Below are positions 5,892 to 34,783 of a stretch of DNA of 54,268 nucleotides, piece by piece. The notes under the pieces are model-generated. The model was not told the DNA's origin. It did no database searches and was given only the letters and a program-made list of their open reading frames with translations. How positions within the stretch are numbered: position 1 is the stretch's first letter; every line of letters begins with the position of its first letter. The position numbers and the translations under genes are program-made. Location of the stretch: positions 1 to 54,268 of the forward strand of contig JAGCSQ010000010.1 of the NCBI GenBank assembly GCA_017964045.1, read 5' to 3'. Origin of the DNA: Paludibacteraceae bacterium (GTDB taxonomy: Bacteria > Bacteroidota > Bacteroidia > Bacteroidales > Paludibacteraceae).

Positions 5892-8800
5892 ATGAAGAAT
5901 ATCTACGCTGTTTTATTATCTCTTTTCGCCGGTGCATGCATCTCCGGCGCGGTTGCACAAACTGTGTCTCTGCCAAATCAAATGAGCTTTGAAGAGGCTG
6001 ATTCAGTTGAACTGCGAAATAAATGGACTCTTAACCCTGGAGCTGATGCTCCGCTGTGCAAAGACCAATGGATTATTGGCCGTTCTGAGCATAGTGCCGG
6101 TCGTCAGGCTCTATATATATCCAATAATGGTTCAGACGCTTGGTTTGATACCGTTCCTTGTGTACAGTATGCATACATGGATATCCAACTGCCCGCAGGT
6201 ACCAGGGTTGACTTGAGCTTTGATTGGAAGTGTATTGGTGCGTCCGGTAATACTCCAGCGTCGTTGTACGTCGGTTGGAACACTCCGCAAAACCTTCAGG
6301 TTGATGCTATCAATCGTTCTGCTGCTGTGCCCGGCACTATCCTTAATCGTTTGACATGGTTGAAAGCTGCTAATGGTCAGGAAGAGTGGACAAACTATAT
6401 CAATACGTTTAATGCTCCGGCTGACGGACGTACTATGCGTCTTGTTTTTGCATGGGTAAATGCTAATACTGACCCCGATGCTCGTACTATAGGTGCTTGC
6501 ATTGATAATCTTGTCATCACAAATAGTAACTGCAAGCGTCCGTACGATATCGCTGCAGAAGTTGTTACATGTGACAGCGTACTTGTATCTTGGTCTGGTA
6601 CATCCGCCAGCTACGAACTGGCTTTCCGTGCCGCAGGTTCTGATGTGTGGAGTTCGTATCGTAACATAGAGCCGTCTATCACTGATGCCACCAAAGCCTC
6701 ATTCCACCTGGTAAATATGTCAGAGGGTAGCTACGACTTCCGCGTTCGCGGTATCTGTACTCCTGATACCAGCGCTTGGTCATACTACAACGGCTTTGTT
6801 GTTTTCTGTCCGGAAACTCACTGCGTCAATTTTACTGACCTCTATGCTCCTACTGTAACATGTACTTACGGTACAACCACTTATGGCGGACAATGCTATA
6901 ACGACCCTGCTAACCGTGCTCATGCTTATGATAATATAGGTGTGGTTGATTACGGATCTGATGCTAAGCTGTCGCGTCATACTGTCAACTGGGATAAGAT
7001 GGCTACTGACCCGCGTACGGGTGGAGACCTGCCGCTGATACCTAAGAACGGCTATGCTTCCGTTCGTCTTGGTAACTGGGAGTGGGGTAATGGCGCAGAG
7101 TCCATCACGTACGACTACCTCGTTGACGAAACCAGCGGTGTGCTGCTCATGCAATATGCCGTTGTGCTTGAATATCCTTCCAGTCACGATGATGAGGAGA
7201 TGCCTCGCTTCGTGCTTGAGATACTTGATGAGGATGGTAATCTGTTGGACCCCTCCTGCGGCGTACGTAACTTCTTTGCTAAACAGGCAGATGGTGTTAA
7301 CTGGAAATCTTATGGTTCAGGTGGCTACTATGGCGAGCAGGTTGTATATAAACCTTGGACCACTATCGGTCTTAACCTCAAGGAGATGGGTATTGCTGAC
7401 GGTACGCACATTAAGGTTCGTCTGACTACCTACGACTGCTTCTTGTCCGGTCACTATGGATATGCTTACTTTACGCTCGACTGCGTGAAGGCTACCATCG
7501 AGTCTGCTTCTTGCGCTAAGGACGAAACCCTTACTATGCACCTTGTGGCTCCTGAAGGATTTAAGTATCAGTGGTATAAACCGGATGGTACGGCTATCCC
7601 GGGTGAGACAACTCGTGAGTATTCACCGCTGGATACACTTACGTATCGTTGCCGTCTGACATCTACGGAGAATGCAGACTGCTATTTCGACCTCTACTCG
7701 GCATGCGTTCCGCGTCTGCCGGTGCCGAACTTTACTGCTAAACTTGCCGGTAAAGACTGCCGCAATCGTATGAACATCACCAATAAGAGCTATGTCAAGG
7801 TCGTTCAACGTGATACAACTATTATTTACTATAACGAGCATCCTGATAGCTACCTCTGGGAAACATGGGGAACTCTCTCCGACGGAACTCACTTTGTTTC
7901 GCTCACCAGCGACCGTGATAATCCTATATTCGATTATCCCGACGAGGGCGGTGACTTCTGGATTAAGCTTACTGCTTATCTGCATGGTACATGCGAGGAG
8001 TCGGATTCTACTCTGATACATATCAAGCCCATTGGTGACTATGGACCGTTTGAGCGCGATACGACTCTCTGCTTCCCATCCGGTTCTACGCAAAAGAGCG
8101 TATGGCTTGAGGAGCAGGAGATTAAGGTGTCAGGTAAATACACTACTATATATAAGACTGTTGCAGGTTGCGATAGTACTATCATATGGAATGTATCACT
8201 TGGCTCTGATACCGTTACCCAACTCACAGATACCACTATCTGCTATGGCGAAACGCTTTGTGTTGGTGAAACATGCATTGGTCCCGGTAACCCGCTTTAT
8301 CGTACAGGTATGTGGCAATGGAAGGGCAAAACGCGCGCTTCGTGCGAGTGCGATAGTATTATCATGCGTAAGGTTACTCTGCGCGAGGAAATGAAGCCGA
8401 CACTTGTTATTGACAGTATTAACCAGAAACTCAATAAGTTCTATGCAACCATCACTATTGGTGGCGAAGGCTTTACCGGTTATACCGTCAACTACCGTCG
8501 CGGTGAGAACAAACGCGAGGTAACAGAGACGCATTCAGCTGCTGATACGCAGATTGACTCACTCAATACAGGTAAGGTAACATTTGTATTCCGCAACGAC
8601 TATGGTTGCGAACTTGAGCAAATCGTTATCTTGGGCGGTTCGTGCCTTAAGATGTCGCTCTTGGAGCAACAACAATGCCTGTGTGGTAAGTCTGTCATAA
8701 GGTACGAACTGAAGATAGATTCAGGTATTCCTACACGCTATCGTATTGACTTTGGCGCTCTTGCTCTGGCTCAGCAATTTGTAAACACAGGTTGGGTTAA

Positions 8801-32884: not shown

Positions 32885-34783
32885 ATGAAGAAATATATAC
32901 TCAATTCGATATGTTTAATCCTCTTGCTTGGACTGATGCTTCCGGCAAGTGCTGCACCTGCAAAGAAGCCTGCAAGTAAAGGTAAGGCTTCATCGTCGCA
33001 GCAGTGGGCAAAGAATAAACTTGACCTGCACCAGATTCATAATGTTGCATTCTGGGGCGGTGTAGGCTATACCGGTTTGGTTAATAACTATGACTATCGT
33101 AATGCCAGCAAGTTCATTGGTGGTGGCGGCGGTATTCTTGGTGTCGGTTATGAGTGGCACTACAAGAAGTTTATGCTCAATATCGGTCCTGAACTGAGGA
33201 TATTCTCATCTAAGGATAAGATTAACTTCGCTGACGGAGAGAATCCGTTTGAGATTGATGGTACTAATCCTGCTTCCCCATATGTGCTGCCGGGTCAGAC
33301 CAAGAGATATGATTTCCATAATACCAGCGAGACTCAGGCAGTAGGACAACTTATGCTGCCTATACTTGCCGGTGCTCAGTTCAACGACTTTACTGTGCCT
33401 CTCTACTTCCTCGCCGGAGTAAAGATTGGTTATACGCTATTTGATAGCTATACTCAGCGTGCTGAGATACGCTCGACACTACATGACCGTTCGGCCTTTG
33501 ATCCTTCATGGACGGATGTCCGCGACTTGGGATTGACAGACTTTAAGGCTAAGGGCACAAACCAACTTGGTCTTGATGTTGCTTTGTCCGCAGAGGTTGG
33601 TGTTAATCTTAATACATACTTTGGTGCAGAGTGGAACGAGAACAACGAGGCTCGTGAGCATCCATGGCACTTGCGTGCAGCTCTCTTTATTGACTACGGA
33701 CTGCCGATTATGGATTTGGGTACTGCAGCACCGATGATGCACAAAACGGAGAAAGAGATGGTTTCAGATCGCTCGCTGCATACATCTGAATATGCTACAG
33801 GCAAACTCAATAGCCTTATTGTTGGTGCTAAGTTCACCGCAGTGCTGCAACTGACCAAACCAAAGCAGATGAAGCCGCAGAACCCGTATCTGGTACTGCA
33901 ACTTGTCAATGCACGTACGGGTCAACCGATGGTGGGTAATGATGCTCGCCTGAATACTAACATCGAGATCAAGAACCTCAAGAACGGTCGCGTTATGCGT
34001 CGTGTACCCAATAACAAGGGTATGATTATTCAGCGTTCAGCACCGGGCGACTATGAGGTTAGCGTAGCTAAGGAAGGTTTCTTGCCATATCAGCCCTTCC
34101 AGACTGAACTGATGTATGGTGTGAACACTAATCTTAAGCAGAAGATAGATACTACTAAGATTCTGCTCTATCCGGAGCCTATCTTCTCCTGTCGAGTATT
34201 TGACCTCAGGACAGGTGAACCTATCAATGCTAAGATATCAGTTATTGATACTACTACTCTTGCAGAGGTTAAGCAGTTCAGCCATAGTTCACTCTCTGCC
34301 AAGGCTTCTACAAAACTTCCTGTGGGAGAGGCTTACTATAGCGCTATGGTTGAGGCTAAGGATCATAAGACACGTATCTTCCCTGTCGGCGTTCAGGGAC
34401 TGGACGATATATACATGGAGTTCGTTCTAGAGCCGATTGTTAGGGGTAAGAGCTTTGTTATCCGTAACCTCTTCTTTGCTTCAGACAAGACAGACATCCT
34501 GCCTGAGTCTGAGCCGGCAATGCAAGAACTGTTTGAGTTCCTCAACGAGAATCCTGATGTGCGCATCCTCATCACAGGTCACACTGACTGGATTGGTACA
34601 GACAAAGACAACCAGATACTGTCAGAGGGCCGTGCTAACAGCGTGAAGCGCTCGATGGTTGAACGCGGTATTGATCCAGAGCGTATAGAAACTGAGGGTT
34701 TGGGTGAGTCGCAACCGATTGACACCAACGAGACCGAAGAAGGTCGTCAGAACAACCGTCGTGTAGAATTCACCATTCTCTAA
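32885..34783 (+). CDS. OmpA-family protein: N-terminal beta-barrel-like domain, two carboxypeptidase-regulatory-like domains and a C-terminal OmpA_C peptidoglycan-binding domain
   Basis: Signal peptide MKKYILNSICLILLLGLMLPASA. Barrel-like strands (GILGVGYEWHYKKFMLNIGPELRIF). CRD-like segments (YLVLQLVNARTGQPM..., FSCRVFDLRTGEPINAKISV...). OmpA_C signature FFASDKTDILPES...ILITGHTDWIGTDKDNQILSEGRANSV...NRRVEFTIL. Confidence 0.85.
   Translation: MKKYILNSICLILLLGLMLPASAAPAKKPASKGKASSSQQWAKNKLDLHQIHNVAFWGGVGYTGLVNNYDYRNASKFIGGGGGILGVGYEWHYKKFMLNIGPELRIFSSKDKINFADGENPFEIDGTNPASPYVLPGQTKRYDFHNTSETQAVGQLMLPILAGAQFNDFTVPLYFLAGVKIGYTLFDSYTQRAEIRSTLHDRSAFDPSWTDVRDLGLTDFKAKGTNQLGLDVALSAEVGVNLNTYFGAEWNENNEAREHPWHLRAALFIDYGLPIMDLGTAAPMMHKTEKEMVSDRSLHTSEYATGKLNSLIVGAKFTAVLQLTKPKQMKPQNPYLVLQLVNARTGQPMVGNDARLNTNIEIKNLKNGRVMRRVPNNKGMIIQRSAPGDYEVSVAKEGFLPYQPFQTELMYGVNTNLKQKIDTTKILLYPEPIFSCRVFDLRTGEPINAKISVIDTTTLAEVKQFSHSSLSAKASTKLPVGEAYYSAMVEAKDHKTRIFPVGVQGLDDIYMEFVLEPIVRGKSFVIRNLFFASDKTDILPESEPAMQELFEFLNENPDVRILITGHTDWIGTDKDNQILSEGRANSVKRSMVERGIDPERIETEGLGESQPIDTNETEEGRQNNRRVEFTIL

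Follow-up and report, generated by a model that had tools for sequence, protein, structure and literature searches.

Gene content and arrangement of the locus

In the window, by which we mean the whole 54,268-nucleotide stretch of Paludibacteraceae bacterium DNA analysed here, six same-strand open reading frames, designated A to F, fill positions 5892-34783 (Table 1). Their coordinates and sizes agree with a preliminary description of the locus, as do the intergenic gaps of 22 nt (A-B), 59 nt (B-C) and 15 nt (E-F). The large proteins A-D together amount to 8586 aa. TTG is the only start codon available to E, at 31889 or 31913; the latter (318 aa) is preferred by gene callers and homologues, and the two starts give overlaps of 38 nt and 14 nt, respectively, with the end of D, whose stop codon occupies 31924-31926. 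Signal-peptide-like sequences were read by eye at the N-termini of all six proteins, in line with the signal peptides originally proposed for the four large ones.

The strong terminator proposed between C and D is supported by a hairpin that folds at -26.1 kcal/mol (z = -5.5). The TAnnTTTG box described ahead of D is likewise present, but so common a motif, occurring 48 times in the window against an expectation of 34, is weak evidence for a promoter, its position being its sole support. Together, the hairpin and the candidate boxes make the suggested layout of two transcription units, A-B-C and D-E-F, plausible.

Table 1. Features of the locus and of the neighbouring T9SS core operon (window coordinates)
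Feature	Position	Strand	Description
TACTTTTG	5820-5827	+	Candidate Bacteroidota -7 box, 65 nt upstream of A start codon
A	5892-9470	+	1192 aa, secreted all-beta protein, A-type clade of A/D family
A tail	~9249-9467	+	Long type-A-like CTD
B	9493-20031	+	3512 aa giant fibre protein: 11 jelly-roll and FN3 modules, Cys-rich repeats, type-A CTD
B tail	19801-20028	+	Long type-A CTD
C	20091-28556	+	2821 aa giant fibre protein: 14 FN3-like domains, GEVED, short CTD
C tail	28431-28553	+	Short CTD, 41 aa
Hairpin 3' of C	28577-28614	+	Terminator-like; 17-bp stem, UUCG loop, U tract
TAATTTTG	28702-28709	+	Candidate -7 promoter box; D start codon 32 nt downstream
D	28741-31926	+	1061 aa, secreted all-beta protein, D-type clade of A/D family; MAM-like jelly-roll, FN3, conserved jelly-roll, PKD/Ig-like, Cys-rich, flexible linker, 7-strand CTD
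D tail	~31723-31923	+	7-strand CTD
E	31913-32869	+	318 aa outer-membrane beta-barrel, unannotated family; alternative TTG start 31889
E twin cysteines	32846-32854	+	CNC in C-tail (Cys312, Cys314)
F	32885-34783	+	632 aa: barrel, CarboxypepD_reg-like domains, OmpA_C
F barrel	32885-33874	+	N-terminal beta-barrel, E paralogue
F middle	33875-34444	+	CarboxypepD_reg-like beta-sandwich domains
F OmpA_C	34472-34783	+	C-terminal, peptidoglycan-binding; through stop codon
porP-porK-porL-porM-porN	40681-46605	+	T9SS core operon
porK	41739-43085	+	Predicted disulfide partner of E
PorK Cys328	42720-42722	+	KGCF

Co-conservation of the six genes, which had been set as a test, is strong: all six components cluster together in at least 80 of the loci examined, drawn from the 479 family matches that tblastn confirmed among genome representatives. 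Gene order is shuffled among loci, the commonest being C-A-F-D-E-B, and D-E-F or A-F-D-E-giant orders recur in metagenome contigs. Certain neighbours are nonetheless favoured, with D followed by E in 49 cases, F by D in 34, E by a giant gene in 33 and A by F in 30, against 2 for A followed by E and 4 for D followed by F. At 42 of these 49 D-E junctions, the genes overlap or lie no more than 30 nt apart. Variant clusters place E immediately ahead of D, and those of variant II have no F-type gene within 10 kb. That a barrel and an OmpA protein accompany D alone, as the earlier description had it, is thus an accident of gene order in this genome, and the adjacencies suggest that D pairs physically with E, and A with F.

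The relatives are metagenome-assembled genomes of uncultured Bacteroidales and Paludibacteraceae from gut and rumen, with identities of no more than 55% among species representatives; no related locus was labelled Prevotellaceae, the family to which the cluster had first been attributed. The porPKLMN operon does lie 6 kb downstream in the window, as noted previously, but this proximity is not conserved in other genomes and we therefore treat the operon as context only. Directly downstream of the cluster in the window are GH28 and DUF4861 genes.

Modular, predicted surface proteins and their T9SS-type tails

A and D were rightly recognised as paralogues: BLASTP aligns them at 27% identity over 875 aa (E = 3e-48), and also over a C-terminal stretch of 218 aa. 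The A/D family divides into an A-type and a D-type clade, the subclades of which track the adjoining gene. Profile searches with D returned a weak PKD match alone, while its predicted structure (pLDDT 83.7) contains MAM-like and Eph/reelin-like folds. The best Foldseek match of this model (E = 1e-15) is the grappling-hook protein GhpA of Aureispira, a member of the Bacteroidota (PDB 9flp); GhpA is an all-beta surface appendage protein with multiple domains and an association with the T9SS. The TM-score of ~0.1 reflects generic strings of beta-sandwiches, with no sign of homology or of heptameric hooks. B carries 11 choice-of-anchor-J stretches (NF038128, 195.7 bits) and 11 FN3-like domains, and C combines its 14 FN3-like domains with a GEVED match of 35.3 bits, each protein comprising ~25 beta-sandwich modules. 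Consistent with the initial view of A-D as strings of binding-type modules devoid of catalytic motifs, all four are all-beta, have no enzyme fold and matched no catalytic family in Pfam or NCBIfam profile searches.

Such arrays invite the reading that A-D capture substrate in the manner of a cellulosome, their jelly-roll, lectin-like and FN3 modules binding plant or host glycans while the barrels serve as anchors. The MAM-like character of the jelly-rolls in B, the MAM-like and Eph/reelin-like folds of D, the gut and rumen hosts, and the GH28 and DUF4861 genes would all suit this idea. Set against them, profile searches found no CBM, GH or PL family match in A-D, and the GH28 neighbourhood is not kept in related loci. 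We regard glycan capture as very improbable; since it concerns the ligand of the fibres, it is compatible with the anchoring model developed below.

Scored as whole proteins on TIGR04183, A and B fall short of its 23-bit cut-off (18.9 and 20.4 bits); scored as C-terminal tails on their own, both attain it (23.6 and 27.8 bits). Direct comparison with the curated CTD profiles gave no match for the D tail, but a profile built from D-family tails aligns with type-A tails from the giants (96.7% probability, E = 3.8e-10). The type-A-like tails proposed for A, B and D are thereby borne out, those of A and D being divergent. Judged from its sequence, C also bears a T9SS signal, which the preliminary description missed: the tails of C and related giant proteins match the motifs of the short CTDs described in Prevotella intermedia (PMC11969387), sharing their length of 40-55 aa, PT/GI-type cleavage motif and GxY or basic end motifs. 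Unlike the P. intermedia cargo, the carriers here are giant fibre proteins of uncultured Bacteroidales. With this short CTD all four large proteins are T9SS-tailed, and A-D are predicted to depend on the T9SS for export.

Paralogous barrels with different C-terminal ends

Modelling of E confidently predicts a beta-barrel (pLDDT 83.1). Its strands are very long and its loops large, and its best matches are generic small outer-membrane barrels of 8-10 strands. An E profile aligns with the N-terminal 330 aa of F over 250 columns (hhalign 99.9%, E = 6.9e-31). Rather than the barrel-plus-anchor pair first envisaged, E and F are thus paralogous barrels that differ in their periplasmic ends, a twin-cysteine tail in E and a CarboxypepD_reg-like domain (CRD) with OmpA_C in F. 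Apart from a weak OMP_b-brl_2 (PF13568) match in F, the barrel family has no Pfam, NCBIfam or PDB match. E and F are not recognisably of the PorP/SprF family, with no match to TIGR03519 or PF11751 and at most 1% in hhalign comparison with the window PorP.

The OmpA_C domain of F scores 81.1 bits and retains the peptidoglycan-binding motifs TD..G..N..LS..R and NRRV, in agreement with its original designation as a peptidoglycan-binding protein; F is accordingly expected to bind peptidoglycan. PF13620 is matched by nine of ten F-family members, three of them above the gathering threshold, and by the window F at only 14.4 bits. The same succession of CarboxypepD_reg-like domain and peptidoglycan-binding OmpA_C makes up the C-terminal half of the T9SS-associated PorE (P. 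gingivalis PG1058), but PorE is a lipoprotein that contains TPR and beta-propeller domains and lacks a barrel, whereas F has a barrel at its N-terminus; on NF052230, F covers the OmpA_C end alone (81 bits against a 600-bit cut-off).

The E tail contains twin cysteines in all 55 E proteins encoded at the loci (50 CxC, 5 CxxC) and in 130 of 145 library representatives of the family. They sit in a short unstructured tail right behind the last strand, as in SprF and PorG, and barrel topology together with the homologous position of the F periplasmic domains would place this tail in the periplasm. The CxC tails of SprF and PorG form disulfide bonds with GldK Cys343 or PorK Cys356 (PMC12635249), and a PorG C232-PorK C356 cross-link has been identified by mass spectrometry (PMC12365241). 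This partner cysteine is kept in the window PorK, where Cys328 aligns with P. gingivalis Cys356 (RGCF), suggesting that E may be disulfide-bonded to PorK. PorG (P. gingivalis PG0189, F. johnsoniae Fjoh_1692) is likewise a small barrel with a periplasmic C-tail cysteine; compared by description, it is an 8-stranded core T9SS component of ~230 aa encoded beside bamA and skp, while E is ~300-320 aa and is encoded within cargo clusters beside D.

The closest organisational parallel lies in the type-B cargo modules of F. johnsoniae, such as SprB-SprF, in which a large T9SS surface protein adjoins a dedicated barrel (PMC9143113, PMC12618676, PMC12635249). As in those modules, a PorE-like OmpA_C/CRD peptidoglycan anchor is sometimes present, the E barrel resembles SprF in its predicted periplasmic Cys-x-Cys tail, and a potentially mobile module can be set beside a wall-tethered one. 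The differences are that the tails here are type-A-like, long and short; that the barrels carry no PF11751 or TIGR03519 signal and best match small 8-10-strand barrels; that the PorE-like CRD and OmpA_C are fused to a barrel paralogue without TPR or beta-propeller; and that cargo and barrel alike come as two paralogues per cluster. In F. johnsoniae, porP-like genes adjoin porE-like genes, and it has been proposed that mobile cargo uses PorP-like proteins alone and static cargo PorP-PorE-like complexes (Gorasia 2022, PMC9143113).

That split also lends itself to a mobile, SprB-like adhesin, in which E would be a track-coupled carrier dragging D and the fibres along a GldJ/K/N-type track or around PorKN rings, with F and A as the static counterpart, in a gliding-type or rotating apparatus of gut and rumen Bacteroidales. 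The E tail motif is the one that couples SprF to GldK. GldJ-like lipoprotein genes (TIGR03524, 340-353 bits) occur beside standalone CxxC-tailed members of the barrel family, and just upstream of the cluster in three loci. The giant fibre genes and the cluster size also count in its favour, since they presumably resemble the sprCDBF operon (Rhodes 2011). Yet the GldJ-like scores lie under the 458-bit equivalog cut-off in what was the sole gliding gene covered, the cargo tails are of type A rather than type B, and E falls outside the SprF family, so that we consider a mobile adhesin improbable.

A proposed two-anchor surface assembly

We propose instead that two anchor modules, a PorK-linked D-E and a peptidoglycan-linked A-F, carry the fibres B and C, a model to which we would give about an even chance. 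The parts come in three pairs: the giant fibres B and C, the paralogous all-beta proteins A and D (~1,050-1,200 aa), and the paralogous barrels E and F. Sec would take all six proteins across the inner membrane. A-D would then pass through the T9SS in the outer membrane by way of their C-terminal signals, while E and F would become barrels of that membrane, E as a dedicated base for D and F as one for A. A disulfide between the E tail and PorK Cys328, like those of SprF and PorG, would tie the D-E module to the PorKN ring, and binding of peptidoglycan through the CarboxypepD_reg-like and OmpA_C domains of F would yield a static, wall-tethered module. The T9SS-exported, wall-tethered surface fibre hypothesised at the outset is therefore broadly right but incomplete, the cell-wall tether covering half of the predicted anchoring and the predicted PorK disulfide, which had gone unnoticed, making up the other half.

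Type-A CTD cargo is normally shuttled by PorV and then anchored to A-LPS by PorU. This rule requires no dedicated barrel, and what we propose for these two barrels thus goes beyond precedent. It is possible, if rather unlikely, that A-D are ordinary cargo of this kind (PorV shuttle, PorU cleavage, A-LPS) and that E and F are OmpA-like envelope proteins, co-expressed to brace the link between outer membrane and wall against the strain of long fibres, the E cysteines forming E-E or other structural disulfides rather than a PorK link. The homology of the A, B and D tails to type-A CTDs, the short type-A-type CTD of C, the canonical OmpA_C of F and the distance of both barrels from PorP/SprF-type carriers all favour such bracing, and disulfide-linked OmpA-like oligomers are known in the Bacteroidota P. 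gingivalis and T. forsythia (PMC12635249). Against it, the pairing of D with E and of A with F is strict, D and E often overlap and their subclades match, which argues for specific partners; the E twin cysteines occupy precisely the position they have in SprF and PorG, and are kept in ~90% of a large family; and the F family has no conserved cysteine to pair with E.

Several elements of the two-anchor assembly are new: the co-clustering of its components, the D-E and A-F adjacency, the paralogy of E and F, the twin cysteines of E, the CRD and OmpA_C of F, and the short CTD of C. Within it, the FN3 and jelly-roll fibres B and C would be displayed from the E and F bases, where they may serve these gut and rumen bacteria as adhesins.

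Gene layout and recurrence of the cluster

The six open reading frames recovered from the window, all on the forward strand, coincide exactly with those placed by the preliminary description, and the intergenic gaps within the cluster are 22, 59 and 15 nt. For E, two TTG codons (31889 and 31913) and no ATG are available as starts; homologues and gene callers choose 31913, giving a protein of 318 aa, so that E overlaps the stop codon of D by 14 nt.

Open reading frames and putative transcription signals of the cluster
Feature	Position	Strand	Remarks
A	5892-9470	+	ORF, 1192 aa
B	9493-20031	+	ORF, 3512 aa
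C	20091-28556	+	ORF, 2821 aa
D	28741-31926	+	ORF, 1061 aa
E	31889-32869	+	ORF; start favoured at 31913
F	32885-34783	+	ORF, 632 aa
Hairpin 3' of C	28577-28614	+	17-bp stem, UUCG loop, U tract; folding energy -26.1 kcal/mol, z = -5.5
TAnnTTTG box downstream of hairpin, before D	28702-28709	+	Motif match, TAATTTTG
TAnnTTTG-like box before A	5820-5827	+	Motif match, TACTTTTG

The division into two transcription units, A-B-C and D-E-F, that had been proposed for this layout is plausible from the hairpin and the boxes, if short of proven. TAnnTTTG motifs are frequent across the window (48 matches against 34 expected), and the two boxes are thus suggestive only through their positions. Between dxs and A, at 5632-5669, an 11-nt unit, CGCTACCCTTG, is repeated in tandem (3.5 copies, 96% match); the candidate promoter box of A follows about 150 nt downstream.

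All six proteins have N-termini that look like signal peptides. The predicted cleavage sites of A (AVA/Q, window 5892-5970), D (VSA/QQ, 28741-28840) and E (ATA/Q, 31913-32000) would all expose a glutamine as first residue of the mature protein, in keeping with the 'Q-rule' of Bacteroidota for the formation of pyroglutamate; the rule does not hold for B, C and F. Q31 of D is invariant in 55 sequences.

The cluster is flanked by housekeeping genes, with trkH, trkA and dxs upstream and DUF4861, GH28, ybeY and others downstream, after which porP, porK, porL, porM and porN follow at 40681-46605. A functional tie to porPKLMN through conserved synteny was ruled out, since the linkage was seen only in the window's own contigs. 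The DUF4861 and GH28 (polygalacturonase-like) genes lie on the minus strand at 34770-37275 and converge on the end of F, which the DUF4861 reading frame overlaps by 14 nt; this pectin-related neighbourhood is absent as a conserved feature of the related loci.

Approximately 60 full-length D orthologues are present in the protein database, and 479 tblastn-confirmed matches to the D family were obtained in one-genome-per-species representatives. The best 80 of these 479 all derive from metagenome-assembled genomes (MAGs) of uncultured gut or rumen Bacteroidales, including Paludibacteraceae, Ca. Aphodosoma, Ca. Colicola, Gallipaludibacter and UBA/RUG bins. The nearest among these 80 is no more than 55% identical, and none carries a Prevotellaceae label. 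Reading frames called in all fetched loci and classed against A-F fall into three recurring orders: giant-D-E-F, as in the window, where 'giant' denotes a large B- or C-like protein; A-F-D-E-giant, often with a short-tailed giant in front to give C-A-F-D-E-B; and giant-D-A-giant or E-D-A-giant, the last of which was met again in one further lookup. The possibility that the six genes are never co-conserved, which the preliminary description had named as refuting its reading, therefore fails decisively.

Same-strand adjacency across 84 non-redundant loci identifies the preferred partners. D is followed by E 49 times, with the junction overlapping or no longer than 30 nt in 42 of the 49, and frequent pairs also include F-D (34), E-giant (33), A-F (30) and D-A (29); A-E (2) and D-F (4) complete the counts. 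Furthermore, A-type (n=65) and D-type (n=85) proteins form two separate clades whose subclades track the neighbouring gene, F coming next in 29 of 38 members of one A subclade and E in 46 of 51 members of one D subclade. The earlier impression that D alone has a barrel and an OmpA protein as partners is consequently a product of this genome's gene order, and the underlying pairs are D-E and A-F. That these pairs form specific complexes is a proposal for and against which we see the case as almost balanced.

In many MAGs the cluster is present at three or four separate sites, as in JAZOMI01 (loci L044, L056 and L068) and CALUOH01 (L048, L074, L078 and L090), and contig JAFTSS010000028.1 (L066, L072) alone holds two copies approximately 37 kb apart. 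This multiplicity points to a cluster that has expanded and diversified, perhaps as a means of antigenic or substrate variation. Full A-F-D-E-giant clusters also occur on contigs of two bins that are labelled as Firmicutes/Negativicutes, Dialister sp. CAG:486 (L023) and Acidaminococcaceae bacterium (L049); these contigs are probably mis-binned, given that T9SS content is Bacteroidota-specific. Database names of the cluster proteins are 'hypothetical' or 'fibronectin type III domain-containing', and our search of a literature library found no paper on the cluster or on either of its two families, A/D and the E/F barrels.

Architecture and sorting tails of the large proteins

A and D are paralogues (27% identity over 875 aa, E-value 3e-48, with one further matching segment at the C-terminus). 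B comprises 11 modules of approximately 280 aa, each pairing a choice-of-anchor-J jelly-roll with an FN3-like domain; Cys-rich 'GCDSVV.L.LTV' repeats come next, and a C-terminal sorting domain (CTD) closes the protein. B exceeds the cut-offs of NF038128 (195.7 bits, 11 stretches) and fn3 (PF00041, 83 bits), and iterated profiles likewise find 11 FN3-like domains. C exceeds those of fn3 (190 bits) and GEVED (PF20009, 35.3 bits), with 14 FN3-like domains by iterated profiles. An AlphaFold model of D built from 55 family sequences (mean pLDDT 83.7) predicts an all-beta string running from a MAM-like jelly-roll through FN3, a conserved jelly-roll, and PKD/Ig-like and Cys-rich parts to a linker and a C-terminal sandwich. 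Conservation is strong in the jelly-roll at approximately 325-540, where the majority of invariant positions lie.

Neither a catalytic family nor a catalytic fold was detected in A-D (Pfam and NCBIfam for all four, Foldseek for the fold of D). The searches gave no support to an enzymatic role for A or D: no catalytic family is matched, a profile search of the PDB returns only PKD and FN3 domains, and Foldseek searches with the D model return only multi-domain beta-sandwich ectodomains. The top Foldseek match is the Aureispira grappling-hook protein GhpA (E-value 1e-15, TM ~0.1), followed by MAM-Ig-FN3 receptors; at a TM of 0.1 we treat this as generic multi-domain similarity and not as kinship with GhpA. 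That these proteins serve to capture glycans instead of mediating adhesion is compatible with the anchoring model developed below, and we regard it as very unlikely.

The type-A CTD is a C-terminal domain of 70-80 aa, modelled by TIGR04183 with a curated cut-off of 23 bits. Whole A and B score just below this value (18.9 and 20.4 bits), and the tails taken alone attain it (23.6 and 27.8 bits); D-orthologue tails obtain 18-21 bits, the window's D tail has no match to the model, and PF18962 yields no more than weak matches. Profile comparison by hhalign aligns the tails of D (96.7%, E-value 3.8e-10) and of A (98.0%, E-value 2.2e-13) with the type-A tails of giant proteins, and those of D with those of A (99.4%), so that by these profiles the A and D tails are clearly homologous to type-A CTDs. 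In the model, a disordered or low-confidence linker (985-993) precedes 6-7 strands with pLDDT ~90, a predicted beta-sandwich in line with the seven strands behind a flexible linker that characterise a type-A CTD. The type-B CTD (TIGR04131/PF13585, gliding-motility-associated) has no match in A-D, PF13585 being found only in very distant A/D relatives (P0077-P0079).

C has no long CTD and ends in a 41-residue tail, 'GT/ALD...GVWYDAAGRRVEVKR', that is, 'GT/ALDNVSVDADGVQKILLNDHLFIIREGVWYDAAGRRVEVKR' (window 28431-28553). Nine related giant proteins share this type of end and the same hairpin, preceded by 'PTGI', 'TAID' or 'ETGID'. Short CTDs of Prevotella intermedia measure 40-55 aa, form a three-stranded sheet with a PT/GI cleavage motif, a GxY and a basic end, and are cleaved and glycosylated as long CTDs are (PMC11969387); they are recognised by motif B (G, Y, basic), motif D (GxY or GxN) and motif E (basic) (PMC11969387). 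The C tail fits this description in a comparison of motifs only. The preliminary description had credited A, B and D with T9SS tails, and to these C may now be added, so that all four large proteins appear to carry T9SS-type tails and their status as T9SS cargo is predicted with high probability. Two kinds of tail occur among the giants of the window and the related loci: a long type-A CTD and a tail of approximately 41 aa, '..PTGI..vQKi..d.qlyIIRdG.wYda.G..V', the latter present in C and in L008, L012, L014, L015, L021, L041, L050, L062 and L080. Short CTDs had previously been reported only for P. intermedia, and here tails that match them occur on giants of uncultured Bacteroidales.

The E/F barrel family and its predicted periplasmic ends

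E matches no family in Pfam or NCBIfam. Its model is a confidently predicted beta-barrel with unusually long strands (pLDDT 83.1), whose fold neighbours are generic small outer-membrane barrels (OpcA, OmpA, Ail and Legionella porins, TM ~0.3); no sequence match was found in the PDB. OMP_b-brl_2 (PF13568, cut-off 27 bits) reaches 18.3 bits in F and matches two of 13 E relatives weakly (best E-value 0.0018). When a profile of 55 E sequences was compared with one of residues 1-330 from 45 F sequences, 250 columns aligned (99.9% probability, E-value 6.9e-31), which makes E and the F barrel paralogues. We are all but certain, in a single judgement, both of this paralogy and of the co-conservation of the six-part system.

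Membership of the PorP/SprF family was ruled out for both barrels. TIGR03519 and PF11751 have no match in E at an E-value ≤ 1 and none in 13 E-family members at ≤ 10, and hhalign of either barrel against the window's own PorP, which scores 203.8 bits on TIGR03519, gives a probability of at most 1%. T9SS models of NCBIfam matched none of 85 diverse barrel-family members. In a library of 1.84 billion representatives, clustered at 50% identity, the family comprises 1,591 clusters at an E-value ≤ 1e-3 and 509 at ≤ 1e-10, and a homology search with the broad barrel alignment found no member with a name or from a cultured organism. One distant member lies on a 2.6-kb contig with an uninformative neighbourhood. 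Another entry, P0012 (1733-bp ENA contig), is a 492-aa prediction in which a UvrC-like GIY-YIG N-terminus runs into the final 106 residues of E (98% identity), most likely a chimera of assembly or gene calling.

E ends 5-8 residues past its last strand in the tail 'SPSICNCVTDN', with the cysteines encoded at 32846-32854. A twin-cysteine tail is present in all 55 locus-encoded E proteins (50 CxC, 5 CxxC) and in 130 of 145 library representatives, the exceptions being mostly fragments or OmpA fusions. The periplasmic domains of F occupy the homologous position, which argues for a periplasmic location of the E tail. Liu et al. (2025) reported that a Cys-x-Cys in the periplasmic C-tails of SprF and PorG forms disulfide bonds with GldK Cys343 and PorK Cys356, located in an R-G-C-F loop where the PorKN ring or track faces the outer membrane (PMC12635249), and cross-link mass spectrometry by Gorasia et al. 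(2025) independently confirmed the PorG Cys232-PorK Cys356 bond (PMC12365241). The K-G-C(328)-F of the window's PorK aligns with the R-G-C(356)-F of P. gingivalis PorK. A disulfide between E and PorK is accordingly a tentative prediction, to which we give nearly as much credence as doubt.

The family of F contains no conserved cysteine. Behind the barrel lie CarboxypepD_reg-like (CRD) domains: nine of ten family members match PF13620, three above threshold, with the window's F at 14.4 bits, and BLASTP detects no internal duplication in the middle region. OmpA_C (PF00691) is matched at residues 530-625 with 81.1 bits against a cut-off of 27.2, alongside many OmpA_C matches in the PDB, including PorE (6TOP). 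At least 90% of 45 family members retain the peptidoglycan-binding residues T567, D568, N576, L579, S580, R583 and N624-R625-R626-V627. On these sequence grounds, F is likely to bind peptidoglycan.

A model for dual anchoring and its implications

We propose that the cluster would form two anchoring modules. In the first, D would be seated on E, itself covalently tied to PorK through the disulfide; in the second, A would be seated on F, which would be tied to peptidoglycan; and the giant fibres B and C would be displayed from both. E resembles SprF in that its gene adjoins a cargo gene, D (49 times), and in its twin C-tail cysteines. It shares such cysteines with PorG, but when compared by description it differs in length (~318 aa against ~230 aa for the 8-stranded PorG) and context, lying in a cargo cluster whereas porG, encoding an essential core component, lies in a uppS-bamA-skp cluster. 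PorE (NF052230, cut-off 600 bits) consists of TPR, beta-propeller, CRD and OmpA_C; F reaches 81.4 bits on this model through its OmpA_C end only, lacks the TPR and propeller, has a barrel instead, and shares the CRD at family level. In its domain layout, F corresponds to the C-terminal half of PorE with a barrel joined on.

In F. johnsoniae, mobile cargo is proposed to use a carrier alone and static cargo carrier-PorE-like complexes (PMC9143113). The model parallels the combination, in that species, of type-B cargo with a PorP/SprF-like carrier and sometimes a PorE-like protein; unlike that system, the present one has another barrel family, type-A-derived tails and a PorE-like part fused to a barrel paralogue. 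Type-A cargo would be expected on the PorV and PorU/A-LPS pathway, and precedent therefore leaves the need for dedicated barrels unexplained. It is conceivable, if unlikely, that the large proteins are ordinary PorV/PorU-handled cargo, that the barrels are OmpA-like and brace the envelope, and that the cysteines of E serve other disulfides.

The reading as a truly mobile SprB-like system, which we consider decidedly improbable, gains some weight from genes for GldJ-like lipoproteins that neighbour standalone barrel-family members with a CxxC tail. The GldJ-like protein, an FGE-sulfatase lipoprotein, scores 340-353 bits on TIGR03524, under the 458-bit cut-off. Loci L092 (2395-6925), L094 (8001-12462), L095 and L096 share the order barrel(+), cdaA(-), folP(-), gldJ-like(+), and in L040, L043 (181-4511) and L065 (326-4658) gldJ-like and gcvH genes lie directly upstream of A-F-D-E-giant. 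More speculatively, and in our estimation rather unlikely, E would be a third, unannotated barrel class, after SprF and PorG, that is disulfide-linked to PorK/GldK, and the first dedicated carrier outside PorP/SprF, serving cargo with type-A-derived CTDs; the clusters would then be machine-driven (moving or rotating) SprB-like giant adhesins with F as the static, wall-bound counterpart. If true, abundant uncultured gut and rumen Bacteroidales would encode such machine-driven adhesins, and the standalone CxxC-tailed members beside gldJ-like genes would be further clients of the track.

Overall, the gene island is real, and its initial interpretation is supported in part and substantially extended by the dual-anchoring model. 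The cluster varies a known theme, in which T9SS surface proteins come with outer-membrane anchors dedicated to them. What stands out is a barrel family that lacks any Pfam or NCBIfam model, lies within conserved clusters for giant adhesins, and bears the twin-cysteine tail by which, as shown recently, SprF and PorG are tethered to PorK/GldK. Disulfide bonding of T9SS and gliding clients to PorK/GldK was found in 2025 and so far involves these two proteins; a family of 1,591 clusters with the same tail motif would widen this mechanism and offers concrete candidates for testing. The cluster is also at odds with the simple rule by which PorV and LPS serve cargo with type-A CTDs and a dedicated carrier serves type-B cargo, and it sets predicted PorK-linked and predicted peptidoglycan-linked anchors side by side. 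Uncultured Bacteroidales of the gut and rumen commonly encode such systems, frequently with several copies in one genome, and the systems are therefore likely to be major determinants of attachment to particles, hosts and other microbes.
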